A stretch of DNA of 33,978 nt from a virus (taxonomy: Duplodnaviria; Caudoviricetes). Below are positions 335 to 18,050 of this stretch, one piece after another. The position numbers and the translations under genes are program-made. The notes below the pieces were generated by a model, which did not search any database, was not told the DNA's origin, and saw only the letters and a list, made by a program, of their open reading frames with translations. Position 1 is the stretch's first letter, and every line of letters begins with the position of its first letter. The stretch lies in the IMG/VR virus record IMGVR_UViG_3300037692_000500, positions 1 to 33,978 of that record; one strand, written 5' to 3'.

Positions 335-604
335 ATGGCATTGATTACAAAGAAAAATAAGAGACGTCACCGCATACAGTTCACCATGACTTGTGGGCTG
401 CATGAGCGCTATACATCATACCAGGTTCTGGCCGATAATCTTGGCCTTGTTATCAATTTTAGCGAAGATTTCGAGGAGTGGTTCAATATCCAGCTGGACA
501 AGATAGGGCATGAGTTGAACAGGATTGAGACAGAACAAGCCGGGCCAGAACCTGTCTGTGAAGCAAAAGAATTCACAGATAATCCATACGGTCTTGAACA
601 ATAA
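335..604 (+). CDS. Hypothetical protein, possible small DNA-binding regulator
   Basis: 89-aa ORF with AGGAG RBS, co-directional and upstream of alpA. Confidence 0.6.
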   Translation: MALITKKNKRRHRIQFTMTCGLHERYTSYQVLADNLGLVINFSEDFEEWFNIQLDKIGHELNRIETEQAGPEPVCEAKEFTDNPYGLEQ

Positions 605-676
605 CCCGGTTGCAAATCCACGGACAATTCATGAGATTAGCCTACCCTTAATCTGAACCTATCAAGAGGTCATTAT

Positions 677-952
677 ATGAAATCCATCACGACATCAAAT
701 ATTTTACCAGCATCCGGTTTTGTACGACTATCACACATAATCGGCAACTCGAATAACAATCCACCAATTCCTGCAATCATTCCGGTTTCAAAAAGTACCT
801 GGTGGGCCGGAGTAAAATCTGGACGTTTCCCCAAACCAATAAAACTCGGTCCCCGCACCACAGCCTGGCGGGTAGAGGATATTCGAAATCTCATATCCAG
901 AAGCCAGGTGATCAAACATGAGAATGAGCAATATGCAACTGATACTGAGTAA
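677..952 (+). CDS. alpA: AlpA-family regulator / excisionase (recombination directionality factor)
   Basis: IIPVSKSTWWAGVKSGRFPKPIKLGPRTTAWRVEDI is the classic AlpA wHTH pattern; GAGG RBS. Confidence 0.9.
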   Translation: MKSITTSNILPASGFVRLSHIIGNSNNNPPIPAIIPVSKSTWWAGVKSGRFPKPIKLGPRTTAWRVEDIRNLISRSQVIKHENEQYATDTE

Positions 953-957
953 CCACG

Positions 958-1932
958 ATGGACTGGATAAAGATTATGTGCAATATCCTGGATCATCGAA
1001 AAATCAAAATGATCCGCAAAGGGCCGGAAGGCAACACTCTCGTCTTGCTCTGGTTGCTGATGCTCACCGAAGCGGGGAAATGTAATCGAGGCGGGTACCT
1101 GATGATCTCGGACAGCTTGCCGTATACGGTTGATACCTTGAGCATGGTGATGGACATTCCCTTACCTACAGTCCAATTAGGACTTGTGATATTTGCCGAT
1201 CTGGACATGATCGACAGCAAAGACGGGGTAATCTTCATAAAAAATTGGACAAAGTACCAGAGTGAAGACAGGTTGGAGGCCCGCAGAGAAAAGGAACGGC
1301 TGCGACAGCAGCGACATCGACAAAAGGAACGAGATAAATTGCGAGCCCTCCCTTCGCCCGAGCAGGCGTCACGTGACAGTCACGTTTCAATGTCACGTGA
1401 CGTCACGCAGGAGAACAGACAAGAACAGAGTAGAGTAGATAAGACAACAGACAAGGTTCGTTTGCTGTTGTCGGGTACCCCTTTGGAGGAAATATCCGAC
1501 GAGAAACTGGAAGTTCTTTTCAAGAGACATGGTCCCGAACAGCTCTTGCTGACTGCCGATGTTGCCGCCGAGATTTGGCGACGCAACCCGGAAGACCGAT
1601 ACAACCCCGGTGGCTACCTCCACACCCTATGCGTATCTCTTGACCTCCCCGATTGGTATGTACCCTTTGAAAAACGCGCCAAGAGGGCCGAGGAGTCACT
1701 TCGCCGGAAAAAGGCCATTGAGGCAGAGCAATCTGCCATGGGACTTAAGGAGGAGGAAAAAAATGCCGCTATGGACATCTGGTGGAATACGTTATCGAAT
1801 AAACAGCGCAAAGGATATCAGGACCAGGTATGCGAGAGTCTGCCGAGGAATATCGTGGTAGCCGAGGATATCGTCATGATTATGGCCAAATCGCTTGCAT
1901 GGGAGGAGACTCAAGCCTGTAGCCATGAGTGA
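958..1932 (+). CDS. Phage replisome organizer N-terminal-domain replication initiator
   Basis: WIKI..DHRKIKMIR..PEG...LWL.ML..AGK.N..G...PYT...L and IKNWTKYQ followed by a basic helix; internal iterons. Confidence 0.85.
   Translation: MDWIKIMCNILDHRKIKMIRKGPEGNTLVLLWLLMLTEAGKCNRGGYLMISDSLPYTVDTLSMVMDIPLPTVQLGLVIFADLDMIDSKDGVIFIKNWTKYQSEDRLEARREKERLRQQRHRQKERDKLRALPSPEQASRDSHVSMSRDVTQENRQEQSRVDKTTDKVRLLLSGTPLEEISDEKLEVLFKRHGPEQLLLTADVAAEIWRRNPEDRYNPGGYLHTLCVSLDLPDWYVPFEKRAKRAEESLRRKKAIEAEQSAMGLKEEEKNAAMDIWWNTLSNKQRKGYQDQVCESLPRNIVVAEDIVMIMAKSLAWEETQACSHE
1368..1408 (+). repeat. GTCACG(TGAC) iterons inside rep, candidate replication origin
   Basis: GTCACGTGAC at 1368 and 1392, GTCACG at 1379 and 1402, in the linker region of the initiator gene. 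Confidence 0.65.
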
Positions 1933-1952
1933 AGGTGGAGGAGAGAGGGAAT

Positions 1953-2130
1953 CTGTGCGAATAATTCGCGCACAGATTCTCGCGCGTTACGCGCGGGGCG
2001 GAAACTTGGGCGTGCCTGCCACTGTCGCCGGAGTGTTCTTCTCAGCTGTTCGGTGTATGCAGTCCTTGGCTGGGCCCTCCGCGCCCCATAATTTCCGCGC
2101 TGTGTCAGCATAAGCCGACACAGCGCGGAA
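1953..2130. promoter_or_regulatory. oriT-like cluster of inverted repeats
   Basis: CTGTGCG..CGCACAG (1953-1975), CGCGCGT-T-ACGCGCG (1981-1995), perfect 14-bp IR TTCCGCGCTGTGTC/GACACAGCGCGGAA (2093-2106/2117-2130); intergenic. Confidence 0.55.
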
Positions 2131-2186
2131 CCAGAACAATCACCTTTTTGCCGCTCATAACGCGACAATTCACGGAGGACAAATAT

Positions 2187-2483
2187 ATGGATATGAAAGA
2201 CGGGACATTTGACGCGCAAGCGGAAGTCGATCGCATTCGCTTCCGCCGCGCAGAAGCAAGACGGAAACTTTTTCGCAAAAGTCGCCTCGATAAATACCGG
2301 TTTGAATTGTCGGCAATGAGTCGTGCAGGCGCCTCTTGTGCCGACCTGGCTGAGTGGTTGAAAATCAACCACCGTTGCAAAATCAGCCGTAGTTCAATAG
2401 ACCGCTACTTGAAAAAACTTCCTGAATTGAAAGAGGAGGTCGAGTCAGAACCGAAAATGATTCATAACAACAACAATATATAG
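2187..2483 (+). CDS. Small basic HTH-like protein, putative mobilization accessory protein
   Basis: GGAGG RBS before ATG 2187; SRLDKY..EL.AM.RAGAS..DLAEWL...KISRSSIDRYL looks like an HTH. Confidence 0.7.
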   Translation: MDMKDGTFDAQAEVDRIRFRRAEARRKLFRKSRLDKYRFELSAMSRAGASCADLAEWLKINHRCKISRSSIDRYLKKLPELKEEVESEPKMIHNNNNI

Positions 2484-2492
2484 GGAAAAACC

Positions 2493-3383
2493 TTGCCAAG
2501 ATTTCGATCCGCCAAAGCCCAGGCCGAACACGCCATTTCCCTGAAAATTGCCCTGGGGCAAGGAAGACATGAGCACCGAACCGATGGTCGAGTCCATAGT
2601 GTCGGGACAGCGCGGGGATATCAGCAGGCACTGAAGGGTTTTGCTGAATATATTCAAAGCCAACGATTCGGGGATCTTGCCGGCGCGACTCTTGAAATGG
2701 CGCAACAATACCTTGCAGATCGGGCAGCGATGGTCGGTCAGAAGACACTTGATCTTGACCGTCAGGCAATACAGATGCATTTAGGGACCGTGCTCGAAGT
2801 CGTGAAGAGTGAAATCGAGACAACTCTTTCCACTCGCAGTTATACATCTGCCCAAGTCGAACGGATTGCTTCTGCCCAAACCGAGCGTAACAGTCTGGCC
2901 ACCCAAATAGCTTATGATGCCGGCCTGAGAGCGCATGAATTGTTGACCCTTCGTCCAACGTATGAAAGGCCGGCCTCTGCACACCGGGAATGGAGTTCAG
3001 ACCGCTTCACCGGCAGAGATGGTGAGAGATACACGGTCCATGGTAAAGGAGGCCTGGTACGTGAAGTCTTGCTGTCCACTCGCCTGGCGGCACGGCTGGA
3101 AGCAAATCGTCTCAGCGAACCGTGCCATGTAGTAGATAGGGGAGTGAACTACACGCAACACTATAATCTCGGCGGTGGACGTACATGGAGCCAGAGCTTT
3201 TCCTCGGCAAGCAAACGGGAACTTGGCTTTTCCAATGGTGCACATGGTCTCCGCCACAGCTACGCCCAGGATAGAATGAAGGCACTGCAGCGTAGCGGCA
3301 TGCAGTACGATCAAGCAAAGAGGACGGTCGCTCAGGAAGTCGGCCATTTTGATAAAAAAACCACAGAAACATATCTCCGATGA
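2493..3383 (+). CDS. Tyrosine-recombinase-fold protein without arm-binding domain; candidate MpsA-like atypical relaxase
   Basis: Catalytic set AGLRAHEL (R), GKGG (K), HGLRHSYA (HxxR), VGH, terminal TYLR (Y); 296 aa, TTG start. Confidence 0.8.
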   Translation: MPRFRSAKAQAEHAISLKIALGQGRHEHRTDGRVHSVGTARGYQQALKGFAEYIQSQRFGDLAGATLEMAQQYLADRAAMVGQKTLDLDRQAIQMHLGTVLEVVKSEIETTLSTRSYTSAQVERIASAQTERNSLATQIAYDAGLRAHELLTLRPTYERPASAHREWSSDRFTGRDGERYTVHGKGGLVREVLLSTRLAARLEANRLSEPCHVVDRGVNYTQHYNLGGGRTWSQSFSSASKRELGFSNGAHGLRHSYAQDRMKALQRSGMQYDQAKRTVAQEVGHFDKKTTETYLR

Positions 3384-4021
3384 AAATCTTTAGGCTCATT
3401 GTTGCGACAAGCATTGTTGTTGGCATTATCTGGCTGACCTGGTTGGTAGTGCTCCCTTTTGGAATAATTCAATTTTCACCCGATGGTCAGCCAAACCCTG
3501 CTTCAGGGTTTTCACTTGTCTTATCTCTGGATGGACAGAAGGTGTCTTCCTCTCCTCTGACTATGATTGAAATTGGCTGGGCGGGGATCCTGACAGCATG
3601 GCCATATGTTTTTATTGGCCTGTTATTTGGCGTCATGGTCGGTTATCCCCTGGGGGAACTGGCTAGACGCCGATTCGGTATTGAGAAGGCATCGAAAGAA
3701 GCTCTCCGAATGAGTTCTGCATTGACTCTGGACTCATTCATTGGAGAGTGCCATGCCAAAAACATAGTGAAAGAAATCAAATCTCTTTTTATCGACTTGC
3801 CAAAACTGCAGAAAGAAGTCGTTGCCGCACGGGAAAAAATCTTGACTATGAATCTGTCTGCCTCAGAGCAAACTCAAAACTATGAAGCTTTGCAGAAAAA
3901 AGCGGAATCGCTCGAAAAAGAACTGATCAAAGCGCGAGCGAAAATCAGGAGATTGGAAGATAAAGCCAATCGACCGACAGGAAATCAATTGACGCAACCA
4001 GAAAATCTTCGTAATATTTAA
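3380..4021 (+). CDS. Membrane protein (two hydrophobic segments) with C-terminal coiled coil
   Basis: ATGA overlap with the recombinase gene; hydrophobic N-terminal and central segments; heptad-rich C-terminus. Confidence 0.7.
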   Translation: MKIFRLIVATSIVVGIIWLTWLVVLPFGIIQFSPDGQPNPASGFSLVLSLDGQKVSSSPLTMIEIGWAGILTAWPYVFIGLLFGVMVGYPLGELARRRFGIEKASKEALRMSSALTLDSFIGECHAKNIVKEIKSLFIDLPKLQKEVVAAREKILTMNLSASEQTQNYEALQKKAESLEKELIKARAKIRRLEDKANRPTGNQLTQPENLRNI

Positions 4022-4680: not shown

Positions 4681-6186
4681 TTAGCTTAGCTCAAATTTAT
4701 GAATATTGGGCAATTCAACATACATCCATCCAGATTCTGAGTAAACAATTGAACTGGCGCATATTTTCTTTACCCTTGAATTGTCACGTTTCATGGAGAT
4801 CATATTGACTCCTCGAGCTGCATCTTGTTTTTGATTGTTACCGCTCGGGGAGGGAGCACCAACTACCATATATTTATTGCCATCCTGGATGGTGCCCCAC
4901 CGCTTATGATTATGTCCATGTATTAATAATCGTGGAGCAAATATCTGCTGCATGAATCGATTCAAGTAAAAATCATTATGATCATCAATCTGTTCTCTTA
5001 CTCCTCCATAGCCTACAGGGCTGTGATGTGATAGAGAAATATGTAAGATAGCATTGTTGTTATTGGAAAAACCCTTTTCTTTAAAGCTTTCTATGACACA
5101 GTCAATGTCATGTTTATCTATCGTTCTCAACGGCCATGATTTTTCGTTTATTTTTTTAGAAGTATTTAAGCCGGAAAAAACGACGCCATATTCGTAGAAA
5201 CCGAATTCCGTCCACGATCCAACCGGAGCATTACCCCAAACTCCTTTTGTAGACGATACCTTTGCTGCAAAATTGCTAAATGGTTGACTCGCGTAAGTGT
5301 TTAATTCGGTGGCTTCATTTTCCACAGAAGAGACGAATTCCAGATTCGGCTTGTCATCTCTTGTAGTTTGGAAGTTTAATTTCAGTTGTTGGGCACCAGC
5401 AAGGGGGATAGAAACATCATGATTTCCTGGAACCAACAAAATTCTGGGAGATGGGAGGCTGATTCCAAGCTTTTGCATAAAACTTTGAAACCAGCCAAGG
5501 GCCATTGCGTATTCCTTCGGATGACCTGTATTGGCAATATCTCCGGTTATCGCTACAAAATGAGGTCCAGTTGTCCATTCCGCCATGATCTTGTCACAGA
5601 GAAAATTGATATCAGGTATGCTGGCCAAAGTTTTCTCAGTCCCTTGCGAGCCGAAGTGCAAGTCGGAAAGGTGCAATATCTGGAGATCGTCTCCAGTGCG
5701 AATATCTAAACTGTACAGTGATTTCTTTCTCCTGAGAAATAGTACTATCTGAGTGCAAATCGCGGCAAAGCCGCCAGATTGAAAATCTTTTAAGGTAAAC
5801 ATTAACGGCTGGTCAATATCTGGGTTATCCGATAGGAAGCCTCGGACAAGCTTCATGGATGAATCGTCCCAAGCGTTGCTGACCAAAGCAACAACATACC
5901 TTTCACTAGCACGACGAAACAGATCCTTAAACAGAGTTCCATGTTCATCATCATCCCAGCCTTTTTTATTTAACCTCACATCAAGCAAAACAATATCAGT
6001 TTTACCTTCAGGTGTTTCGGTCTCAAGATAGACCTTTGCTTGGCCTGGAGAATCAGCAAAGGTCAAATGAAACCCCCTTGGGTCGTAATGCTGGCCCTGC
6101 AGTCTCATGTATTTGTTATATCTGCTATTATTATCCTCACTGTATTGAGCCTCATCGTCAATAATCAACACGTTCCAGTTGTTCAT
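4681..6186 (-). CDS. Response-regulator receiver domain fused to calcineurin-like metallophosphoesterase
   Basis: REC: NVLIIDDE, DIVLLDVRL, VALVS. Phosphoesterase motifs: HLSDLHFG, ITGD, VPGNHD, SHH, HGHNH. Confidence 0.88.
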   Translation of the reverse strand: MNNWNVLIIDDEAQYSEDNNSRYNKYMRLQGQHYDPRGFHLTFADSPGQAKVYLETETPEGKTDIVLLDVRLNKKGWDDDEHGTLFKDLFRRASERYVVALVSNAWDDSSMKLVRGFLSDNPDIDQPLMFTLKDFQSGGFAAICTQIVLFLRRKKSLYSLDIRTGDDLQILHLSDLHFGSQGTEKTLASIPDINFLCDKIMAEWTTGPHFVAITGDIANTGHPKEYAMALGWFQSFMQKLGISLPSPRILLVPGNHDVSIPLAGAQQLKLNFQTTRDDKPNLEFVSSVENEATELNTYASQPFSNFAAKVSSTKGVWGNAPVGSWTEFGFYEYGVVFSGLNTSKKINEKSWPLRTIDKHDIDCVIESFKEKGFSNNNNAILHISLSHHSPVGYGGVREQIDDHNDFYLNRFMQQIFAPRLLIHGHNHKRWGTIQDGNKYMVVGAPSPSGNNQKQDAARGVNMISMKRDNSRVKKICASSIVYSESGWMYVELPNIHKFELS

Positions 6187-9100
6187 GGTTTACTCCCATA
6201 AAAGTGCTCTATCAAAGGTAAACATACTGTGATATTCATTTGATTGTCTTTGTAGCTTCTCTGTACCGGATTATGGATTAAGTGTGTGGATACCATTGTT
6301 TCTGAAGGTTTGATTCTAGGACAATCTTCATTTTCTGCATGGTTCATCATTTCAAGGATTAAGGCTTTGTCTTTGACATAAAGGATACAGTTAAGATCAC
6401 AGAACAATCCATCAAAGAAAATTTTTTCAGAAGAGTGCAGAACGTTATAAATAAATTCTTTTATCATAGTTTTAAGTATCGGAGGGCAAACGATGCAAAC
6501 TTTTGCCGGATCTAATACTTTATCCATGCATACATTTATGTCTGGCAAGCACCCTTGGTCAGTCCAACGATGATGTTTTTTGCATAAAGGATCTTCTATC
6601 TTTTTTTTCCATTCGTCGGTTGAAATAGATCTTGTTAAAAAATTTCTGATCTCTTCTGCAGTTGATATAATGTCTTCACGAAACGATTTAGCAGTAGCTT
6701 TTTCACTATCAAAAATTTCGGAAAGGATCTTCGCCTTGACACTATCAAGAGCAACCTCATTTTTCTGCAACAGCGCAACATAATCATGCACTAAGTCAGC
6801 ATGATTATCTGTGTCGAATGAGCTTTTCACGTTACCAGTAAGAACAAGGGGTGAAATTTCTCTCAAGGCTGTTTCAATTATTTGTAAATCCCTGCATATT
6901 TCACGCTTATTTGCGTATATTTCGCCAGTTAACCTCTTTCGGCAAAATCCAGCATGACGATCATTATCTTGTTTGCCCAGCAACAAATAGAGGGAATAAA
7001 ATGCATGTCTAGTGCCCCTTGCATTTTTCCCTTGACTAAATAAATAAGCGTCTGTGAGTAGCGTCTCTGCTGTTGTTTTTTCGTTCTGCTTCAGTGATGA
7101 ACATCGCAACTCTTCAATCTGCTTCTGATACGTTCCGGCACGCTCCATCAGCCCACCCAACATCAACAGAAGGTCATCATCTGGATTGTGAACGTTCGTA
7201 GTTTGTCGCCATAGTTGTTTCGTTAGGATATCAACTTGTTTGTCTGTCGCCAGGAGTAGTGCCAAACAACCAAGACGCTCAAGCTGCTTCGTTCTATCCG
7301 GATTATCCATGTCCGGCCTATGAGCTAGAAGCACTTTCAAGAGAAGCTGAAACCGTTCTTGAACTTCTTCATCATCAAAATCGTCAAAATAGATAAATAA
7401 CTGGCAGAGCAAAATTTCCAGTGTTGCATCACGCCATTTTGAGCGGTCTCCGGGATAATCATCTTCCCATGGAACTCGCGCAAACTTCAAACCAACACCT
7501 TTATAAGAGGTTGTCCTAATGATCTCTATAACCGTTGCAGCCAAGCCTGTAGTTGTTCCGTGTTCTATCTTATATTTTTTGCCCTCCCCTTTGCCCTGCC
7601 AATCTTTTCCGAACGTGATTTTACGGATATCAGGCAATTGTCCAGGGCTCAGGCCATGTCGTCTCCAATGGTTTGTAACCGAACATGCAGTCCACGCACT
7701 TACCCATTCTTCAATTTCAGCTCTTGCCTCATCCCTCCACATCCGCCGTGCTAATTGCCTTGCAAGGTCTATGGAGCGACACAAAGAGCAGGTGCTAGCA
7801 TTGCCCAATGGTGGTACATCCCAGCGCCAGTAGTACCGGTGGGTGTTACGGTGGACGTCACAAAGATATTTCCGATAGAGAGGCAGCCCGGTACGTGAGA
7901 GCATACCGAGATGGATCACCTCCTTGGCACCGGCATTCCGAAGCAATTGTTCCATCTCTCGCTGAACCTTGCCAGTAACAGCAGCGTCATCAAGCAAAAC
8001 GATCTTTGTCATATTATTAACAAAAAGCTCGTCCCGTATCCGATCATAGGTAAGCGAGGGGATTCGAATTGCTGTTTGTGAATGTGAAGCCCAGAAACGT
8101 ACGGGAATAAAAGTCAGATTTAATGTTCTATTATCTTGGGCGAGGTTCTTAAGTGCTTCAACCAATTTATCAGTTACAGCATGGGAAGGATATACAACCA
8201 TGACCCGATATGAGCCTCCGTTATGCTGAGCCTGTTTTTTTAACTCACCAAGTATCCACTCTGTTGCTGTTCCCTTGTAAAAACGCTTGGATTCGACACC
8301 ATATGCTAGGTTCATTGTCAATAAATCATGGTGGGTACCATAGACCCAGTGCCCCAGTTTTAACAAATCGAACCGAATCATATCCTTATACGTTTGCTGG
8401 GGATCTTTTCCGTAGACAGATTCAGCAAAAAGATCATCGTCAATCTTGACAAATCTACGTATCGGTGCTGCTTTTGGACCGCCACGACTGATGTAAGGAG
8501 TACCAGGAAGGCGCTCGTACTGTAATTTATTGGTTGGTGGATTAAGCAAATTGATAGGCTGCTTCAACCAATCAAGAGCACAAAGGCGGGGGTCAATTTG
8601 CTCCGTTGCCCCTTTAACTTCGCCATGACGCAACAAATGTATAGCGAATTGCCCTGACAGAGCCGCACGTTGTGCGGTCCTGCCGGTAACAAATACACTG
8701 CCAACGACTATCTGAAGATTCCTGTCATCCGTTCTACTGCTAATCTCTTGCAGGGACATACGCGCATCTCCAGGCAATAGATCAGTTAGTAATGGATCGG
8801 CAGCGACACATTCTGCCTTATGCGCGTAAAGAAGCCAAGTTCTCTCAAGGGCACGCCGGGCGACAAATTTTCTTGTTGGATCAAGCAACGCGTGGGTCAG
8901 ATCCAGATAGCCATTAAGTTTGATGCTTGGTTCTTTGTTGTCATCACGTTCCCAAATAACCTCCTCACAAATGAAAGCGGAAGCTGAATTCTCTTGTTCC
9001 AACACCCCCTGCCAAAAAATTGCTGAATCGTTCTCCCTTAATTTTTCTAAGATAAATGCTCCGTATTCTTCCTTTACTTTCCTGGCCTGCCCTTCATCCT

Positions 9101-10844
9101 GTTTAAATACACTTCCTGACTGTCTAGAGGTAATCGATTTGTAACACTTCACGCACCAGTCACGGGTTATCAGGTAGACCCAAACAGAATTTCTTTTTCT
9201 TAAACTTTCTTCACTCGAAAGCACTGCGTCCATCAACGAAGCATCTTTTCGTGACATGTCTGCAAAAATCCACACCCATCGGTCTTGGGATACTTGCTTT
9301 TTCGGTTTATGGACTATTTCATTCATCCAAAAGAGAACTTGATTCTTTCGCACAAGCTCAGGGAGCCAAAGCGAAAAAGGCTTTGTGAAATTTTCAAGAT
9401 GCCATTTACGACTTTTTAGACCCCCACCAAGGTTTCGATCATCAAAAACCTGCCAATCACTTAATTGGGTTTTGCCGGGATGCTCAATGCGAATGTCGCC
9501 ACTTGTTATCTTCTCCCATTCGGGTGGAGGATCCCCATATTTCTCAGTTAGCGCGTCTAGGCTCAGGCAAAAATGCCATAACGTTCCCTTGGTAAAATGC
9601 ACAATTTTATCACTCGCAACATAAGCTGTTCTCTTTGCTAAATTATCGGCACTACCAGCACGATCAGGATGCCATGGTAGTCGTTCAGCCACCCATTCAC
9701 CGGAGCTGTATAGTCTAGCACTTTCTTCATTGTCTGAAAGTGAGTTGCGGACATATTGCAAACCTGTGAGCATAGTCTTGTTTTCCCGGGTGTGACGGGA
9801 TAACGGTTCCTTAAAAAGAACTTTCCCGATCTCATGGAGTGGGTTAGAAGTAGATTTTATCTTTTCCAGCCGTTCTTTTAGTGCTGGTGAAGCATTTATT
9901 ATCCACTCTTCAAGGTCATCAACGAAGCCACGCCCCTGATCCATATAGAAAAACTCCAGCCAAACAGAATTGTTACCACTCAACTCAAATTTACTAACCC
10001 CAGGACAACATTGTGTTTCTGTGGTGATGTAGCCCTTTTTCTGGAGCAGGTTTTTGCTTAATTGTCCAGCAGGTTCACGTAAGCGTGCATATAGTCCTAC
10101 ATAACATGAAGATGCCTCGTCTTTGGCATAGGCATGCTCTCCAGCGTTTAGAAGAATTTCTACGATAAGGTTATGAATTTTTGTTATCAAATCATTAAAC
10201 TTGTCCGGCTCTCCTTCAAAAAAACTACTTATTCTCGACTTCTTGATTCGTGTCGTCCAGTTGGTAACTGTTTGCGTTACACTATCCTCTTCCTGAAATT
10301 TTGTTACCGGTTCAATGATGGCTTCCAAACAAATCGAGTCCGGATAGGCCATCACATAACTGTTCGAATCCAGCTTTTCATATAACTTCTCATCATCAGC
10401 GGCATAAGTTGATGCTCCCAGATGGACATCAGATTTCATATCTTTGAGGTTAGATAAGAATCCGTGAAGACTGACGAACTTCAAGAAACCTCCACGAATC
10501 ATGATGTCGTGGTTCGATACAGGCTCATCTCCAAGCAAAACAGTCAAGGACGATCCAGACCTAGCACAAAAAGTTTTCGCCGCGATGAGAATACCCAGAA
10601 GGGGAAATGGATCGATCCAGCAGAGGCGAGAAAAATCTAAAATCAGCTCCACCGGATCTGTAATGTTGGCGAGGGCCTCCTGGCAAATGCCGAAGGTTGC
10701 AGACCAAAATTCGTCACGTATTTCGACATAACCCTCTTTTTTCGGTGGAACACCCCAAACCGGCTGCAACACACCGGGATCTGGTAGTTTTACTACTGAA
10801 ACAACAGACACCAAATCTGTAGTAATAGTTTTCATTCTATGCAT
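6183..10844 (-). CDS. 1553-aa multidomain protein: STAS-like, GHKL/HATPase, phosphoribosyltransferase-like domain(s), degenerate C-terminal HATPase
   Basis: LDFSRLCWIDP (STAS-like); EILLNAGEHA, DQGRGF, TGL, KGT (N/G1/G2/G3 boxes); IVLLDDAAVTG..LLRNAGAKEV (PRPP loop); EFIYNVLHS..ITVCLP near the C-terminus. Confidence 0.8.
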   Translation of the reverse strand: MHRMKTITTDLVSVVSVVKLPDPGVLQPVWGVPPKKEGYVEIRDEFWSATFGICQEALANITDPVELILDFSRLCWIDPFPLLGILIAAKTFCARSGSSLTVLLGDEPVSNHDIMIRGGFLKFVSLHGFLSNLKDMKSDVHLGASTYAADDEKLYEKLDSNSYVMAYPDSICLEAIIEPVTKFQEEDSVTQTVTNWTTRIKKSRISSFFEGEPDKFNDLITKIHNLIVEILLNAGEHAYAKDEASSCYVGLYARLREPAGQLSKNLLQKKGYITTETQCCPGVSKFELSGNNSVWLEFFYMDQGRGFVDDLEEWIINASPALKERLEKIKSTSNPLHEIGKVLFKEPLSRHTRENKTMLTGLQYVRNSLSDNEESARLYSSGEWVAERLPWHPDRAGSADNLAKRTAYVASDKIVHFTKGTLWHFCLSLDALTEKYGDPPPEWEKITSGDIRIEHPGKTQLSDWQVFDDRNLGGGLKSRKWHLENFTKPFSLWLPELVRKNQVLFWMNEIVHKPKKQVSQDRWVWIFADMSRKDASLMDAVLSSEESLRKRNSVWVYLITRDWCVKCYKSITSRQSGSVFKQDEGQARKVKEEYGAFILEKLRENDSAIFWQGVLEQENSASAFICEEVIWERDDNKEPSIKLNGYLDLTHALLDPTRKFVARRALERTWLLYAHKAECVAADPLLTDLLPGDARMSLQEISSRTDDRNLQIVVGSVFVTGRTAQRAALSGQFAIHLLRHGEVKGATEQIDPRLCALDWLKQPINLLNPPTNKLQYERLPGTPYISRGGPKAAPIRRFVKIDDDLFAESVYGKDPQQTYKDMIRFDLLKLGHWVYGTHHDLLTMNLAYGVESKRFYKGTATEWILGELKKQAQHNGGSYRVMVVYPSHAVTDKLVEALKNLAQDNRTLNLTFIPVRFWASHSQTAIRIPSLTYDRIRDELFVNNMTKIVLLDDAAVTGKVQREMEQLLRNAGAKEVIHLGMLSRTGLPLYRKYLCDVHRNTHRYYWRWDVPPLGNASTCSLCRSIDLARQLARRMWRDEARAEIEEWVSAWTACSVTNHWRRHGLSPGQLPDIRKITFGKDWQGKGEGKKYKIEHGTTTGLAATVIEIIRTTSYKGVGLKFARVPWEDDYPGDRSKWRDATLEILLCQLFIYFDDFDDEEVQERFQLLLKVLLAHRPDMDNPDRTKQLERLGCLALLLATDKQVDILTKQLWRQTTNVHNPDDDLLLMLGGLMERAGTYQKQIEELRCSSLKQNEKTTAETLLTDAYLFSQGKNARGTRHAFYSLYLLLGKQDNDRHAGFCRKRLTGEIYANKREICRDLQIIETALREISPLVLTGNVKSSFDTDNHADLVHDYVALLQKNEVALDSVKAKILSEIFDSEKATAKSFREDIISTAEEIRNFLTRSISTDEWKKKIEDPLCKKHHRWTDQGCLPDINVCMDKVLDPAKVCIVCPPILKTMIKEFIYNVLHSSEKIFFDGLFCDLNCILYVKDKALILEMMNHAENEDCPRIKPSETMVSTHLIHNPVQRSYKDNQMNITVCLPLIEHFYGSKP

Positions 10845-10920: not shown

Positions 10921-12003
10921 TTAGGCAATCTGCTCAGGAACCCAGTATGGCAGTAGCGAACTTCCTGGTTCATCAACAATAATCGCCACACTCTGGGAAG
11001 CTCTTGACACGGCCACGTAGAACTTGGCTGCTGCAATGGGCTCCAGATACGTACCGCACTGCACGAACTTAGTGATACCAGTGGTCGGTGCGATTAGTAT
11101 GCGCTCGTACGTCATTCCCTTTGCGACTCTGAAGTTTATATAGTCAAGGTCGAAGGCCTTTCCTGAATTGGCGCTATCGCGTAGGCACTGCGGGTAGAAC
11201 CGGCTCAAATATTCTTTGATGTGTTTGGAACGAATGAGAAACACGCCGTCATGCCCGGTTATTGTGTGGTTTGCCGACTCCGTCCTTGGAAAGGCCCAAC
11301 TGGAGTTAAAAATTGTATCGGAGAATTCCGCAATCTTGGGTTCGCAACGCCAAGTCGTGGCATTCTCAATGATTGTCAATACACCACGCTCCTGACGTTC
11401 CCGAAACCACTTGACGGCTTCGGCATATGCATACCTCTTGTTCTTGCTACTGCGCGGATTCGTGGAAAGCACCGACTGCCGTACATCGCCAACCATCCGG
11501 ACCTCGATGGTCGAACCGAGGAGCACGTCAATGACATCCCAATCATGGCTACTGAGATCTTGGGCCTCGTCGATGAGGATTTCGTTGTAGATGCACTCAA
11601 GCCTGCGCAGAAGTGATCCCCGGCTCGCTCCGACCAGTTCATGTGCTAGCCGCCCCAATTCACAAGCATAAACAGCACCGTTTGAGTCGAGAAAACGTCT
11701 AAGACCGGTAGCCATCCGGTGTGGCCGCCCATCAAAGTTGAAGCCACAAACCCTCTCGCCAGCGAACTTAAAGGGAAGAAACGGCCGAGCGAACTCCCCC
11801 AACAAAAAAGTGAACCAACCCATGACTACAATGCCAGAATGATCGGGAGCGTATTTTGCGAGACGACGGCGAAGCTCTGCTTGGTTTGTCTGCGTATACG
11901 TCAGCACTAATGCCCGTCGGTCGCGGGGAAGTGCGGCATAATATTCGACGATTCCCTGGGTCTTGCGAGAACCTGCAACAGCTAATGTGACACAGTTAGC
12001 CAT
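10921..12003 (-). CDS. gajB: UvrD-like helicase, Gabija GajB
   Basis: AVAGSRKT Walker A, LTYT, LIDEAQD Walker B, VGD.RQS, KGMTY, YVAVSRA; ATG 12003 overlaps the gajA stop. Confidence 0.85.
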   Translation of the reverse strand: MANCVTLAVAGSRKTQGIVEYYAALPRDRRALVLTYTQTNQAELRRRLAKYAPDHSGIVVMGWFTFLLGEFARPFLPFKFAGERVCGFNFDGRPHRMATGLRRFLDSNGAVYACELGRLAHELVGASRGSLLRRLECIYNEILIDEAQDLSSHDWDVIDVLLGSTIEVRMVGDVRQSVLSTNPRSSKNKRYAYAEAVKWFRERQERGVLTIIENATTWRCEPKIAEFSDTIFNSSWAFPRTESANHTITGHDGVFLIRSKHIKEYLSRFYPQCLRDSANSGKAFDLDYINFRVAKGMTYERILIAPTTGITKFVQCGTYLEPIAAAKFYVAVSRASQSVAIIVDEPGSSLLPYWVPEQIA

Positions 12004-13597
12004 GTATAAATACCGCCGCGTTGAGCATGTACCCTGGTGGAATGATCGACTTTGTGGCGCTGGCAATGCGAAGGGCTGCCTCTGTCTTTTCCCGCTTCAT
12101 CCAAGTTGCCAGGTCGGCCGCTTCCGTAATGCCCAGAACCTCTCTGAGCAGGGGTTCACCATTATGATGGATCAGCTGAGGTTCAAGGGTATGGCCATGG
12201 CTGGGTGCTCCGATAAAGAGTTCTCTTCTTCCTGCAGCGAGCCATGGCTGAAGCGGAACACTCAGTTCACTTGGTTCAACACCATCGTTGTCGCGAACTG
12301 CCGCCACAGTTTTATCGAGCGCCTCGCAAAGTTCCAGGCACCGGCCGAGGGACAGACCTCGCATACTGAGTACATCGATCCCGAGTTCCATTGGTCTCAT
12401 CTTGTATTTGTCTCTGAAGATACGCTCGAAGATGATCTCGTCGGAAGGGCCTTCGACAAGGACAATTTTGTTTGCCATAACCATGCGAAGCGTGTCGTAT
12501 CCTGGGAGTTTCTGGAAGTAGGCAACAGTGTCAGGATTCAAGTCAGACAATCTATGTGAATTGCCAATGCCGAGCAGATGAAGTCCATTTAAGCCCAAGC
12601 GATTGATAACGAACGAGCTGTGAGTCGCAATAAAAAGTTGTTGGTTTTCGCCAGCGAGCGATTCCACTCGCGATAAAAGGGTAGTGAGACTGGTGTGCGT
12701 CAAATGATTTTCGGGCTCTTCGATCATTATAAAGGCCGCACGTTCAGAATGTCGGCTCATGGCCAAAGAGATCTTGATTGCCGCCTGCTGGCCTTGGCCG
12801 GACATTGAGAAAGGCACGTTCTTGACATGTGGGGTAACTACTCCCTCCCATGAGGTACGGGCGCTTTGATCCATAGCAAGGATTATTGGTTGGTCGTGAA
12901 GTGATGCATGTATTCCGGCTATCCGTTGGTTTACTGTTTTTAGGGCGCTATCGGACATTGACGCCTTGACTCTGCGGTACGCAACGGAAATCGCAGCCCG
13001 TTCGATTGGTTGCATGCTGTCGTTAAGCAAGTATCTCATGTGGTAATCTACACCGGTGGAAGAGCGCACTGTACGTGAGTCAATGATGGCCGTTGCCAAT
13101 TGCCGTGGACGATTTGTGATGACAACATCCGCAAATGAGCGCCAGTCGATAGTGTAGTACTCTGAGGGCAAGAGAGGTGATGGATCCTTGGCCCACTCTT
13201 CGCGCTCGGTAGCGTAGTCTGGATCCGGAAAAACCCCCATCGCTACTCCTGGACATGCATTCGTGGGAATATCGGTGTTTATTGCTCCACAAAACTGCTG
13301 GAGATTGTTGCAATTCTCGAAAAACAATTCAATGTGGATCTTGGGCCATGGGACCTTTTTGCCGGCTGCACATTGTTTGACGAACTCCTCAACCAGTTCA
13401 GTATTAAACCAATACGGATTGAGCTCTTCGGAGGCTGTACGCCCGTTTATTCGTCCGGTCAACGCAAGCGCAATTGCCTCCATCAGAGTTGACTTACCGC
13501 TCTCGTTAGCGCCAGCAATTAGATTGAACTTTTTGTTCGGTTCGAATGTGAAATCTTTGTAGATCCGGTAACCGTGGATTTTTATCTTCGTGATCAC
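11996..13597 (-). CDS. gajA: OLD-family ABC-ATPase/TOPRIM nuclease, Gabija GajA
   Basis: GANESGKST, GQGQQ, IEEPENHL, THS; TOPRIM VLVEGPSDE and RDND; GTG start at 13597 with GGAGG RBS. Confidence 0.88.
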   Translation of the reverse strand: MITKIKIHGYRIYKDFTFEPNKKFNLIAGANESGKSTLMEAIALALTGRINGRTASEELNPYWFNTELVEEFVKQCAAGKKVPWPKIHIELFFENCNNLQQFCGAINTDIPTNACPGVAMGVFPDPDYATEREEWAKDPSPLLPSEYYTIDWRSFADVVITNRPRQLATAIIDSRTVRSSTGVDYHMRYLLNDSMQPIERAAISVAYRRVKASMSDSALKTVNQRIAGIHASLHDQPIILAMDQSARTSWEGVVTPHVKNVPFSMSGQGQQAAIKISLAMSRHSERAAFIMIEEPENHLTHTSLTTLLSRVESLAGENQQLFIATHSSFVINRLGLNGLHLLGIGNSHRLSDLNPDTVAYFQKLPGYDTLRMVMANKIVLVEGPSDEIIFERIFRDKYKMRPMELGIDVLSMRGLSLGRCLELCEALDKTVAAVRDNDGVEPSELSVPLQPWLAAGRRELFIGAPSHGHTLEPQLIHHNGEPLLREVLGITEAADLATWMKREKTEAALRIASATKSIIPPGYMLNAAVFIHG

Positions 13598-13675
13598 GAC
13601 GAACCTCCAATACATGCCATAGCGAGCTTACCGGCTTCCGAAGCAGAGAGTATGGATTGAGATCTAGACCAGTCA

Positions 13676-13729
13676 GTCCAACGGACCTAATCAGCGGCGC
13701 GGCATTTTGCGTCCGCTGATTAGGGCCGT
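13676..13729 (-). repeat. attC-like site (integron cassette recombination hairpin), interrupted at one end
   Basis: 17-bp stem with 1 mismatch (13681-13697/13713-13729); minus strand ends in GTTGGAC (GTTRRRY); the other end is cut after ..CCGT by intron sequence. Confidence 0.65.
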
Positions 13730-13862
13730 GTGCGCCCGGCATGGGCGTGAACTTGTGGGGTAAAGTCCCTCTATATGCTCCTGCGTTAAGTCATTTGCTT
13801 AACATAACATACTAACTGAAGGCAAGAGCATTATCGTGAGGCAATGTTTGGAGAGAAGTGGC
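13730..13862 (+). mobile_element. Truncated 5' fragment of a group IIC intron (no RT ORF)
   Basis: Starts GTGCGCCCGGCATGGGCG, then GGGGTAAAGTCCC and GAAGGCAAG..CGTGAGG..GAAG, matching class C domain I; inserted directly after a hairpin. Confidence 0.75.
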
Positions 13863-14044: not shown

Positions 14045-14129
14045 TAGCAGAGAGTAACTGTCAGGTCAAGGCCAAGCCCTCCGGGTGCTCGCCCACTCAC
14101 AGCCTTGACCTGACAGTTACTCCCTGCTA
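14045..14129. repeat. 28-bp inverted repeat (1 mismatch) with 29-nt spacer
   Basis: TAGCAGAGAGTAACTGTCAGGTCAAGGC / GCCTTGACCTGACAGTTACTCCCTGCTA. Confidence 0.85.
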
Positions 14130-14255: not shown

Positions 14256-15458
14256 TCACCGGGGTGAAATATTTCTTTGGTTCCCCTTCAGTGAGTCCAG
14301 ATAATCTGCCCATTTTTGCATCATCCGACGCCGTTCCGGTAAATGTTGGGCGTGATTATAGGCCGCTTTTATGTTGTTACGCTCTGCATGTGCAAGTTGA
14401 CGTTCAATGATATCTGACGGCCATCCCTGTTCATGCAAAATGGTGGAAGCCATAGCCCGGAAACCATGCCCGGTCATTTCATCTTTGCCATAGCCCATAT
14501 TTCGAAGCGCCGCCAATATCGTATTATTGCTCATTGGACGGGTGCCACTCCGTAAACTTGGAAATACATATTTACTATTCCCAGTCAGTGGCTTGATTTC
14601 TCCTAAAACAGTTATTGCCTGCAAAGAAAGCGGGACAATATGCGTTGTCCTCATTTTCATTTTTTCGGCCGGGATCTTCCACTCCGCCTTGTCAAGATTG
14701 ATTTCAGACCACTCAGCATGGCGCAACTCACCAGGCCGGACGAAGGTGAGTGGGCCAAGTTTCAAGGCGCATCTTGTGATAACGCTACCCTGATATCCAT
14801 CTATAGCGACCATCAACGCCCCTATTTTTTCAGGATCGGTAATGGTTGCCATGCTTTTTGAGCGCGTTGGTGTTAAAGCCCCCCTGAGATCAAAACTTGG
14901 GTCCCGCTCTGCTCTGCCCGTGGCAATAGCATAACGAAAGACCTGTCCACAAATCTGCTTGACCCTGTGCGCGGTCTCATGCGCTCCCCGGTCTTCAATT
15001 CTTCGAAGAACTTCCAGAAGCATTGGTGCGGTTAATGCCGAAATGTCACATTTGCCCAGCCATGGAAAAATATTGTTTTGCAAGCGACTGATGATTGTTT
15101 CAGCATGTTTTTCAGTCCACACCGACTTGTTTTTTATGAACCATTCTCTGGCAACAGTCTCAAATGCGTTTTTTACCTCGGCGTGAACCTCAAGTTTCTT
15201 CTGTTTCTTGAATTCCATCGGGTCAATGTCTCTTACGAGCAAGCGCCGCATATCTTCATGCTTCTCCCGAGCCTCTTTCAAGCTTATGTCTGGATAAACA
15301 CCTAGCGCAAGCGTTTTACGTTTTCCGGCAAAGCGATAATCCCAGCGGAAATATTTCCCTGCTTTGCTAATAAGTACATACAATCCTCGACTATCGGCGA
15401 TCTTGAACGGCTTATCCATTGGCTTGGCGTTACGAACAGCAGTGTCTGTTAGGCTCAT
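14256..15458 (-). CDS. int: P4-family tyrosine integrase
   Basis: MSLTDTAVRNAKP..D..GLY arm-binding domain; TFVRPGELR, KMK, HGFRAMAST, QLAH, AAYN. Confidence 0.95.
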   Translation of the reverse strand: MSLTDTAVRNAKPMDKPFKIADSRGLYVLISKAGKYFRWDYRFAGKRKTLALGVYPDISLKEAREKHEDMRRLLVRDIDPMEFKKQKKLEVHAEVKNAFETVAREWFIKNKSVWTEKHAETIISRLQNNIFPWLGKCDISALTAPMLLEVLRRIEDRGAHETAHRVKQICGQVFRYAIATGRAERDPSFDLRGALTPTRSKSMATITDPEKIGALMVAIDGYQGSVITRCALKLGPLTFVRPGELRHAEWSEINLDKAEWKIPAEKMKMRTTHIVPLSLQAITVLGEIKPLTGNSKYVFPSLRSGTRPMSNNTILAALRNMGYGKDEMTGHGFRAMASTILHEQGWPSDIIERQLAHAERNNIKAAYNHAQHLPERRRMMQKWADYLDSLKGNQRNISPR

Positions 15459-15520
15459 GACGGTATCTCCTCTGACGGTAGTTGGATATACCGCCTAAAA
15501 TACCGTCATTCATGTCGGTA
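15458..15520. promoter_or_regulatory. Putative integrase arm-type binding sites
   Basis: TGACGGTA at 15458 and 15473, inverted TACCGTCA at 15501, variant TGTCGGTA at 15513, between int start and att. Confidence 0.6.
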
Positions 15521-15554
15521 TGTCAATGGATTTTACTGGACCCTATTGGCAAGT

Positions 15555-15590
15555 AAAAACCCCGAATGCCTTATCAGCACCGGGGTTTTT
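15555..15590. terminator. Hairpin downstream of the ssrA fragment, likely bidirectional terminator
   Basis: AAAAACCCCG-N16-CGGGGTTTTT. Confidence 0.6.
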
Positions 15591-15616
15591 GGTCTTTACT
15601 GGACTTCTTTAAACTG

Positions 15617-16027
15617 CTAAATGGTGGAGGCGGCGGGAGTCGAACCCGACGCCCCCTCCTGGAAGCCTTTACCCACAAGGGTTTCAGAAGTAGGTGAACA
15701 ACCTCCGAACAACATATGGACTTTCCCCCCATAGCTCGGCACCCCGATATTGTCCCAATGTTCTTCTTCCTGATCATGCTCGCACCAGAGCACCAAAACC
15801 TTTTCCAGACAATCAAGATTCCCCTGGACCTGTTCCAGGGCCGACGCGAGCAGCGGTGGATGAAAGACGGCATCGGTCAACGCTCCCTCGCGTAGGGTGC
15901 CGATAATTCCTCTTGTCCGGTCTATGAGAGTTCTGCTCATTTCCACCGGATCAATTGTCACGTTCGGGTTAAGAAAAATTTCTTCGGGAAAAAATGAGAT
16001 GGTGGGCTTAATTTCTTTTTTACTCAT
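15617..16027 (-). CDS. Hypothetical prophage protein reading through the att core
   Basis: GGAGG RBS, dedicated upstream promoter; C-terminus GSTPAASTI is encoded by the ssrA fragment. Confidence 0.6.
   Translation of the reverse strand: MSKKEIKPTISFFPEEIFLNPNVTIDPVEMSRTLIDRTRGIIGTLREGALTDAVFHPPLLASALEQVQGNLDCLEKVLVLWCEHDQEEEHWDNIGVPSYGGKVHMLFGGCSPTSETLVGKGFQEGASGSTPAASTI
15622..15648 (-). repeat. ssrA: att core: duplicated 3' end of tmRNA (fragment only)
   Basis: CGGGTTCGACTCCCGCCGCCTCCACCA (T-arm, acceptor 3' strand, CCA); no tmRNA body upstream. Confidence 0.85.
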
Positions 16028-16047
16028 TGGTGTTCCTCCATAGAAAA

Positions 16048-16112
16048 TGCCATGAGCTGTCCTAGGTCAGTAGTGACCTTCCGGGCCTCGCGGGAACCGG
16101 CAACTCATGGCA
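16048..16112 (-). ncRNA. c4-like antisense RNA / structured leader
   Basis: Closing stem TGCCATGAGTTG/CAGCTCATGGCA with two inner hairpins; loop CACTACTG is complementary to upstream CAGTAGTAGTG (16163-16173). Confidence 0.55.
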
Positions 16113-16185
16113 AATCGTATCTGTAGAAACAAAAATAGCCGATCTTTAAAGTGCTGGCCACACACTACTACTGTTAAGGAATTAC

Positions 16186-16215
16186 AGACTACATAATTAA
16201 CTTAATTATTGTCAA
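16186..16215 (-). promoter_or_regulatory. Sigma70 promoter with palindromic operator in the spacer
   Basis: TTGACA-N18-TAGTCT; ATAATTAA-G-TTAATTAT perfect dyad at 16193-16209. Confidence 0.7.
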
Positions 16216-16400
16216 GACTGTTGTTGCGGCCGCGCGGCTATTCCCTTCGTGAATGGAGCGTGTTACGAATAGTGTGATTCGTCATACGTAACACGTATCG
16301 TAATATTCGTAACACTGGTTAGGAAGTTGATTAACTATTTGTCATTATAATATATAACAGAAAAAAATGGATCAAAACAGCCGAAAAAAAATTTAGGTCA

Positions 16401-16712
16401 CCCCCCCCCTCTCAGAAAAAGGTGATAAGGTGATGAAACGATTTTTAGGCCGATATAACGACGAAATAACAAGGAGATATTAAGAAAGAAAAAAGGTGAT
16501 GATTTGGTGATTAGAGGTGATAATCATCACCTTTTTTATAACTTTTTTTAAAAATATAACTATCTAATATCATTACACATCACTTTTTACATCACCTCTC
16601 ATCACCAAATTATCACCTTTTTAGAAATGCTATTTATAGCTGTGCATTCGGTTACTTATCCTTGTTATTTTCCCTCTCATCACCAAATCACCTTTTTCTG
16701 AGAGGGGGGGGG
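16401..16712. repeat. Nested inverted repeats with GGTGAT/ATCACC iterons, candidate phage origin
   Basis: Perfect 26-bp IR (16401-16426/16687-16712), 12-bp IR (16464-16475/16659-16670), 32-bp IR with 2 mismatches (16490-16521/16591-16622), AT-rich centre. Confidence 0.85.
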
Positions 16713-16751
16713 GTACCTCAGTTTTTTTGCCTTTTTTCTTATTGTTAGGTG

Positions 16752-17000
16752 TTAGGTGCTGAGTGAGGAAAAAAGACGTTGCTGCTCGATACGAGGGAGC
16801 ATGCGTATCTTGGCAATGATCTGGTCCGGCAGGTCCATGGCGGATGGGCTGAGCGTGTGGGAAAAAGCAAGCTCCATAACGAAGGTGTGCCCGCATAGCG
16901 GATTGGAACAAGTGCAGTACAATTTTTTAACTGAATCGGATTCCTGAGCACTCGACTGAATAACGGCCACTTTCTCACAACGATTACATCTGATTCGCAT
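16752..17000 (-). CDS. ogr: Ogr/Delta-like zinc-finger late activator
   Basis: MRIRCNRC..LYCTCSNPLCGHTFV..FSHTLSPSA; GAGG RBS favours ATG 17000. Confidence 0.92.
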   Translation of the reverse strand: MRIRCNRCEKVAVIQSSAQESDSVKKLYCTCSNPLCGHTFVMELAFSHTLSPSAMDLPDQIIAKIRMLPRIEQQRLFSSLST

Positions 17001-17051
17001 AATCAAAAACCTCTAAAAACTCATATTAACTGATAATAGATTATACAATTT

Positions 17052-18050
17052 TCACTCAGTTTTTTCAAAGCTTATCGCATTGTTATTGCTTAATAAATCG
17101 TTAATTTGCAGCAAGTATTTTCTGAGCGGTGCTATCTCGTTTTTCTCGTAAATGACAGCCGATTTTGTCACGTCCCCGAAGCCTCCCCTTGCCTCTGCCG
17201 GGACGATACTTGCAAGTGCCGGTGGTATCCGGTGGGCGGCTATGATGTCGTCTCGCGAGATGTTTTTGATTTTCTCCAGATCATCCCTTGTTGAAAAATC
17301 GCCGACTGGAATAATCTGCACGTCTTTTTCCCGCCCATTCGGGATATGCAAAAACATATTCCTAAAGTTACCGAGCTTCTTGGTTGACTTGACGGCATCA
17401 CGTATAGATTTCTTTTCCGGCTCTCCAAGCATGGCGGCTGAGGAATAAAAGATATAGCCGACATGCGCGCCGTTGAGGTAATACCGTCTGCGAAAAAGGG
17501 TTGCGTCCTCATTGAGCAACATTGACTGGATCGCTCCCAGGTATGACGGTATGCCGTAGATAGTTTGAGCTACGTCATAGTTTTTCATATGCAGCACTTC
17601 GCCGGGCTTGAACTCGGTCTTTGAACCGTCATATTCAATCATGCAGTATTGGTCTTTCGCCTTCATTCTCCTCATATTGATTGCCGGAAGATGCCGGAGG
17701 TATACGACTTCCCCGATAAGGTTCTTTATCTTTTGAAAATAGGCGTTGCAGAAGGTGACGAAATCCGTGGTGAACGGCACTATTTCGGAAAACGGCACTG
17801 CCGGTGAAAGGATGATGTCCTTCAAAATCATATTCGTTTTGAACTCAAGCAGCGGCCCGTGGTAGGCATTGGCACCACGTAGCCGGGCCAGGCCCGAGAG
17901 CGAGACAGGCGGGGAATAATACGAACCGTTATCCAACAGGAAAACCCCGAGGTAATCGGTAATGCTGCCATTAACGACCGGTTCCGGATCCCCGAAGGAA
18001 AAGGCCATCGATTCTTCTTGTTCCGCTGCTCTCTGCTTTTTTTTAGCCAT
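17052..18050 (-). CDS. gpQ: Portal protein (P2 gpQ-like)
   Basis: FSFGDPEPV, YGIPSYLG..LLNEDATLFRRRYY.NGAH.G, GNFRNMF, AAHRIPP. Confidence 0.95.
   Translation of the reverse strand: MAKKKQRAAEQEESMAFSFGDPEPVVNGSITDYLGVFLLDNGSYYSPPVSLSGLARLRGANAYHGPLLEFKTNMILKDIILSPAVPFSEIVPFTTDFVTFCNAYFQKIKNLIGEVVYLRHLPAINMRRMKAKDQYCMIEYDGSKTEFKPGEVLHMKNYDVAQTIYGIPSYLGAIQSMLLNEDATLFRRRYYLNGAHVGYIFYSSAAMLGEPEKKSIRDAVKSTKKLGNFRNMFLHIPNGREKDVQIIPVGDFSTRDDLEKIKNISRDDIIAAHRIPPALASIVPAEARGGFGDVTKSAVIYEKNEIAPLRKYLLQINDLLSNNNAISFEKTE

Follow-up and report, generated by a model that had tools for sequence, protein, structure and literature searches.

A conserved gene pair behind Gabija, a likely anti-phage phosphorelay with a nucleotide-degrading effector

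What is the function of two overlapping genes located directly behind the Gabija defence genes in the virus record IMGVR_UViG_3300037692_000500? The DNA analysed here, referred to as the window, covers the 33,978 nucleotides of this record. One of the genes encodes a giant protein of 1553 aa and the other a receiver (REC) domain fused to a metallophosphoesterase. A previous inspection of the letters alone (the sequence-only reading) had proposed that they form an undescribed defence or signalling system. We found that the pair is real, conserved and unnamed in the libraries searched. On balance we lean towards reading this two-gene module as an anti-phage phosphorelay that would switch on a nucleotide-degrading effector. 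In this reading the giant would detect infection and hand phosphate on to the receiver of the partner protein, and the phosphorylated receiver would then release the nucleotide-degrading enzyme, so that the infection is aborted. The two genes and their domains, given as positions in the window, are:

6183..10844, minus strand: giant sensor/kinase gene, open reading frame (ORF) of 1553 aa
10425..10742, minus strand: STAS-like domain, residues ~35-140 (hhalign against 9 STAS domains 41%, E 2.8e-4)
9546..10340, minus strand: SpoIIAB/RsbW-type GHKL kinase domain, residues 169-433, ATP-binding boxes intact
9009..9482, minus strand: middle alpha/beta domain, residues ~455-612 (AlphaFold model; conserved D468, R470, K500 and D529)
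8535..8987, minus strand: probable degenerate phosphoribosyltransferase (PRTase)-like repeat with invariant S716 (motif register only)
7809..8417, minus strand: type I PRTase domain with DD loop for phosphoribosyl pyrophosphate (PRPP) (VIA Z about 11 to the HPRT family; hhalign 94%)
7779..7790, minus strand: CxxC motif, C1019 and C1022 (CSLC), each in 154/162 proteins
6663..7031, minus strand: helical bundle with invariant His1297 (6954-6956), candidate phospho-acceptor
6210..6671, minus strand: histidine-kinase ATP-binding (CA) fold (VIA Z 11.4 to 4u7n and 11.2 to the VanS CA domain 8dwz)
4681..6186, minus strand: receiver-metallophosphoesterase gene, ORF of 501 aa (Pfam Metallophos, E 2.3e-13)
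5737..6186, minus strand: receiver domain of that gene (hhalign 98% to 15 generic receivers)

Both ORFs were confirmed, as were their 4-bp ATGA overlap at 6183-6186 and their location 76 bp behind gajB. Homologous loci were collected by pattern from the giant alone, which yielded 62 loci; 9 of them end too soon, and about 8 of the remaining 53 are near-copies. In all 53 loci with room a receiver-effector gene lies directly downstream of the giant, across several phyla and with a few partners frameshifted or interrupted, and the same arrangement was present in 3 of 3 further genome loci with a long match to the giant. The pairing is thus conserved across homologues. No third conserved gene was found at these loci, where only near-copies have neighbours in common. 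At one locus (L024) an IS200-type transposase interrupts the phosphoesterase partner.

In Pfam, PADLOC, NCBIfam and PHROGs the giant matched no family that would give it a name, apart from weak matches to ShosT and ComF PRTases; the sequence-only reading had likewise recognised no named system. Compared with Pfam, another 25 homologues matched nothing but PRTase and HATPase families, below the cut-off, and in the ESM Atlas the giant fell into its own unnamed cluster, with nothing else apart from leads under 0.9. Searches at E<=1e-3, mostly with residues 1-1200 as query, gathered 403 cluster representatives (50% clustering). We aligned 162 full-length proteins with some redundancy among them (the window protein, 124 search matches and 37 locus proteins), and all counts out of 162 refer to this alignment. 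The motif residues are kept in 132-162 of these proteins which, together with the 403 representatives, argues that the motifs do not occur by chance. The closest named homologue belongs to a Desulfobulbaceae metagenome-assembled genome (53% identity), and among the named hosts at the 9 genome loci are Thermodesulfobacteriota, Pseudomonadota, Bacillota and a Herpetosiphon bin. The family is rare and patchy: counting the centre genome, the giant was present in 3 of 301 sampled genomes of one order, one of these being a mere fragment, and in 3 of 401 genomes of one phylum. Viral contigs gave 7 pattern matches, none of them confirmed, and no homologue turned up in plasmids or GenBank phages.

We derived the anatomy of the giant from two overlapping AlphaFold models (pLDDT 84.7 and 87.6) and the alignment. 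The STAS-like start, the motifs EILLNAGEH, DQGRG and LLDDAAVTG and the CxxC that had been read from the sequence are all in place. In the STAS-like domain the DFSxxxWIDP motif lies at 10608-10646, and no phosphorylatable Ser follows the DxS..xD motif in the giant, since Pro79 occupies the phospho-Ser position (151/162). The front kinase domain has SpoIIAB as its best VIA match (1l0o, Z 12.3, rmsd 2.6, 141/141 aligned, whole chain). It shows the fold together with the ExxxN, DxGxG and G2 boxes of the SpoIIAB/RsbW type: the N box EILLNAGEH lies at 10134-10160 and DQGRG at 9927-9941, and E229, N233, D302, G304 and G361 are each found in 162/162 proteins. The middle domain gave no significant profile match to STAS, DUF4325, REC or PRTase, and a second STAS/DUF4325 domain at this position received no significant profile support (hhalign 0.2% against small alignments; the region lies outside the VIA rows and was modelled as part of the long chains). 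In the following repeat, which is probably a degenerate PRTase-like copy judging from its motif register, GSVxVTG replaces DDxxxTG (GSVFVTG at 8682-8705; S716 162/162). Compared with PRTase profiles, residues 620-770 gave an insignificant hhalign probability of 0.7-0.8%, in a region that lies outside the VIA rows and has a motif register only.

Residues 810-1012 combine the type I PRTase fold with the PRPP loop DDxxxTG (LLDDAAVTG at 7971-7997), in which D952 is kept in 160/162 and D953 in 132/162 proteins. The domain matches ShosT weakly (PADLOC, E 3.7e-5), and the PyrR and PurR folds turn up among the VIA rows of the giant. A helical region connects the CxxC to the bundle carrying His1297. 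This histidine is found in 162/162 proteins, even though most homologues were gathered with the first 1200 residues. The CA fold behind it (hhalign 92% to 30 generic CA domains) retains an N box, EFIYNVLH at 6435-6458 (N1467 150/162), while the Asp of G1 is replaced by Asn and the G2 box is gone; N1501 of the fold is kept in 148/162 proteins. A canonical DHp-CA histidine kinase is therefore not seen, as the CA fold is there, the G1 Asp and G2 are not, and the His region matches DHp with 0.4%. The two HATPase domains of the giant match each other with a profile probability of just 0.4%. The sequence-only reading had described the C-terminus as a decayed HATPase. This holds for the lost G1 Asp and G2 but undervalues the region, which is more than a decayed HATPase because it carries the invariant His. 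Predicting residues 1095-1553 in complex with the receiver gave a score of 0.00, which speaks neither for nor against binding.

In the partner, D10, D11, D69 and S103 of the receiver are present in 41/41 proteins whichever effector follows, so that the acidic residues are intact as previously read. The canonical beta5 lysine is absent, however, and the receiver is therefore not fully canonical. The window copy carries IIDDE, D69, HLSDLH, GDI, GNHD, HH and HGHNH, and the metal ligands of the phosphoesterase are invariant in 64/64 aligned proteins, in agreement with a complete calcineurin-like enzyme. Its top NCBIfam matches are the anti-phage DS-8 and DS-9A models (E 8e-16 and 9e-13, far under cut-off), and among solved structures GpdQ/Rv0805 (E 6e-12) ranks above SbcD (7e-7). 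By these comparisons the effector resembles a small-molecule phosphodiesterase more closely than it does a nuclease. Of the two effector activities first suggested, nucleotide degradation thus fits and a nuclease is less likely; we lean slightly towards an attack on small nucleotides and not on DNA.

The effector can be exchanged. In 12 of the 53 loci the partner is a REC-PNP protein in place of the metallophosphoesterase, and these proteins match PADLOC PDC-M60C over their full length (E 8e-35, versus 7e-14 for the housekeeping MtnN). A FastTree of 41 giants places the 7 PNP rows in one clade nested among phosphoesterase rows, which indicates a single swap. At L049 (16016-23281) the REC-PNP gene is followed by TIR, SLOG, Nmad2, 5-hmdU kinase-like and thymidylate-synthase-like genes; this arrangement lies on a conjugative element and is present in five contigs.

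The REC-PNP variant leads to Detocs. According to the accessible part of the Detocs preprint (10.1101/2023.01.24.525353), the kinase His, the receiver Asp and the PNP site are required for defence, the PNP cleaves ATP and is toxic on its own, and receiver-effector fusions are the outputs. PADLOC PDC-M60A/B/C marks loci with a TPR-kinase, a receiver and a receiver-PNP on Klebsiella plasmids, and we infer from the layout shared with that part of the preprint that PDC-M60 is Detocs. In three of four such plasmid loci (L064, L065 and L067) the annotation splits the DtcA-like gene in two, with an IS3 insertion in L065. Like Detocs, our pair has a large kinase with a conserved His upstream of a receiver-effector fusion with a conserved Asp, an Asn at the kinase G1 position that DtcA-like proteins share, and swappable effectors, including the DtcC-like PNP of one clade. 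Unlike Detocs, the sensor is STAS-like/SpoIIAB/PRTase instead of TPR, the giant has two GHKL folds, the module consists of two genes without a standalone receiver, and the main effector is a metallophosphoesterase, which the accessible text of 10.1101/2023.01.24.525353 does not name as a Detocs effector.

No PDC-M60A match was detected for the window giant (E<=0.01), 4 homologues (E<=1e-8) or 4 C-terminal pieces (E<=0.1), whereas a Klebsiella plasmid DtcA-like protein scores 1.9e-82. A PDC-M60A search of the 401 genomes gave no match, with the control likewise silent. In the 62 loci, a scan of ORFs of at least 70 aa for a standalone receiver (DtcB) revealed 5 short ORFs with a receiver, each of which is a truncated or frameshifted partner. 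After a weak 39% pairwise match, special kinship to the Detocs kinase was considered and rejected (CA 69% to DtcA-like versus 92% to generic domains, small alignments), as was special kinship of the receiver (96.5% to Detocs-type versus 98% to generic receivers, also small alignments). Lacking a TPR-type DtcA match, a standalone receiver and special kinship of kinase or receiver, the pair works like Detocs by its architecture yet is not a Detocs member. The architecture is unnamed in the libraries and literature searched, as had been supposed, but its output logic is that of Detocs. The supplementary tables of the preprint (PNP-clade operons) may list the REC-PNP variant.

We then turn to the gene neighbourhood. 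The flanks of 42 distinct loci were represented by 259 ORFs of at least 130 aa, a subset of which was compared with NCBIfam and PADLOC; L008 was left out as frameshift-ridden. Defence-type genes flank 17 of the 42 loci by our own classification, which is supportive but not a statistic because the background rate was not measured. Named systems occur at 11 loci, L010 among them being a near-copy of the window island: Gabija, type I and IIG restriction-modification (RM), QatABCD, BREX, Dazbog/GmrSD, DdmD, Avs2, Thoeris-like TIRs, AbiEii and a PDC-M60A gene. A further 6 loci have softer candidates (Schlafen, HNH, PDC-S06, S20, S23 and M62). At L057, three genes downstream of the homologous pair and behind RM genes, there is a gene of the DtcA-like PDC-M60A type (14846-17257).

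Conserved pairing, the invariant His and Asp, the DtcC-like PNP swap and the defence neighbours, all of them comparative evidence, support the suggestion of a defence system with a two-component-like relay. From these comparisons we regard a defence role as quite probable and a phosphate transfer from His1297 to Asp69 as fairly probable. Whether the phosphate would come from the front SpoIIAB-type domain, with the C-terminal bundle and degenerate CA serving as phosphotransfer module, is a nearly even call; the front kinase is favoured as source because it is the sole domain with complete ATP-binding boxes. More tentatively, the PRTase region might sense PRPP or nucleotide pools disturbed by infection while the STAS-like and middle domains hold the kinase off. 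It is the best sensor candidate since PyrR and PurR are examples of non-catalytic PRTase folds that act as sensors of PRPP and nucleotides. The most detailed version, in which a SpoIIAB-fold kinase has been rewired to phosphorylate the His of a fused bundle, a gate formed by a tandem PRTase pseudo-dimer reads the PRPP/nucleotide state and a phage-driven metabolic change triggers nucleotide destruction, appears unlikely as a whole.

Several observations weigh against such an anti-phage relay. The E-x-x-x-N signature and fold of the front kinase are those of Ser kinases, and we know of no citable precedent for His phosphorylation by a SpoIIAB-type domain. The bundle superimposes on CheA P1 (1tqg, Z 9.1, rmsd 3.8), but unrelated four-helix bundles tie with it. 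His1297 is located at a loop-helix junction in an HxxP pattern, and it was generic DHp profiles that matched its region with only 0.4%. The missing beta5 Lys belongs here as well, although the aligned Detocs-type receivers seem to be without it too, and by the tree the effector swap happened only once. Finally, 25 of the 42 loci have no recognised defence neighbour and show mobile-element, housekeeping or unknown flanks, many contigs being short; housekeeping flanks occur at L003, L006, L015, L027 and L059.

The same relay could be driven differently, with the C-terminal CA as a true histidine kinase and the front domain phosphorylating a gating serine, e.g. S716. N1467 is kept in 150 proteins, DtcA-like kinases also show Asn at G1 while Detocs needs its His (accessible text of the preprint), and the front domain is SpoIIAB-like with S716 invariant. 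However, the CA of the giant is without G1 glycines, lid and G2, whereas DtcA-like proteins keep the G2 box GEGGSG, and the window copy lacks even the GG of the family; we consider this arrangement improbable. Quite unlikely is a catalytic PRTase whose product is an unusual nucleotide or which acts as the toxic effector in its own right, the receiver-phosphoesterase or receiver-PNP removing its product as antitoxin or reset. The DD loop and the weak match to the ShosT toxin PRTase would suit it, as would two partner enzymes that both act on nucleotides and, in the accessible part of 10.1101/2025.09.30.679545, PRTases as effectors in ShosTA, PsyrTA and Ophion. Yet D953 varies, and the alternative partner resembles the Detocs PNP effector, which the accessible preprint text describes as toxic alone in a system where fusions are outputs. 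A stress or nucleotide-homeostasis signalling cassette on mobile elements without anti-phage role is about as unlikely: STAS/SpoIIAB parts are typical of stress partner-switching and 25 loci are without recognised defence neighbours, but neither a sigma factor nor a DNA-binding output is a conserved neighbour, the distribution is patchy and the effector was swapped for a DtcC-like PNP.

Other systems have parts in common with the pair, and for DS-8/DS-9, ShosTA, Ophion and Ambrosia these are single parts and no more. With the partner switches SpoIIAB/SpoIIAA and RsbW/RsbV the giant shares the kinase fold and ExxxN motif of its front domain and a STAS-like domain next to it; in the giant, however, the parts are fused in one chain, the phospho-Ser site is Pro and no sigma factor is a conserved neighbour. 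DS-8/DS-9 of DefensePredictor, whose metallophosphoesterase is needed for anti-phage defence (PMC13092281, accessible part), are the best NCBIfam matches of the effector domain, but their phosphoesterase is fused to NACHT or paired with HAD, and the scores fall far short of the NCBIfam cut-offs, with 57 bits against 790 and 48 against 420. ShosTA and Ophion contain defence PRTases (ShosT, OpnC) as separate small proteins, and Ambrosia shares a HATPase-REC pair, its REC having a wHTH and being linked to RM genes.

The architecture was not found in the literature searched, which excluded Burroughs and Aravind 2020 and Gao et al. 2020. It is not described in the accessible parts of 10.1101/2023.01.24.525353, PMC13092281, 10.1101/2025.09.30.679545, PMC9503650, PMC7824862 and PMC12839542, and term searches of the available text of PMC10853773 and PMC13069673 gave no match. 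That an in-silico description already exists is possible, though we rather doubt it. The 2020 survey by Burroughs and Aravind is said to predict immune systems with histidine kinase-receiver signalling and effector fusions, and this architecture may already be among them.

In the window the pair belongs to the cargo of an island:

10921..13615, minus strand: Gabija gajAB, neighbouring cargo outside the pair (PADLOC GajA E 1e-199, GajB E 3.5e-131)
14256..15656, minus strand: island end, with a tmRNA 3' fragment (15622-15656) followed by a tyrosine integrase (14256-15458)

From the tmRNA fragment (Rfam tmRNA, E 5e-9) and the integrase (domains by Pfam), the island extends over gajAB and the pair to AlpA, a replication protein and a second recombinase-like gene (Pfam). 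With 43%, the GC content of the pair is lower than the 49-51% of Gabija and the flanking modules. At the far end (335-4021), AlpA lies with a replisome-organiser-type protein and a divergent tyrosine-recombinase-like gene of 296 aa, and together they could serve an integrative mobilisable element for replication and mobilisation. To the right of the island lies a P2/HP1-like prophage (Pfam), and the location of the tmRNA fragment between integrase and prophage suggests two elements integrated in tandem at ssrA. Just upstream of gajA, a strong hairpin at 13670-13800 (z -5.2) resembles an integron attC site, and the abutting stretch is similar to a group IIC intron at its 5' end; Rfam matched neither. 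Gabija might have been acquired in the form of a gene cassette. A long near-perfect inverted repeat (14045-14129, z -9.0) lies between integrase and gajA.

Detocs has set the precedent that two-component signalling can itself be anti-phage, and the family described here would be a second, independently built example. Its sensor is quite different, and the cytoplasmic domains suggest PRPP and nucleotides as inputs. The pair therefore offers a two-gene, residue-level handle on how metabolic state triggers immunity, and also bears on the substrates of defence metallophosphoesterases and on a SpoIIAB-fold kinase feeding a His-Asp relay.

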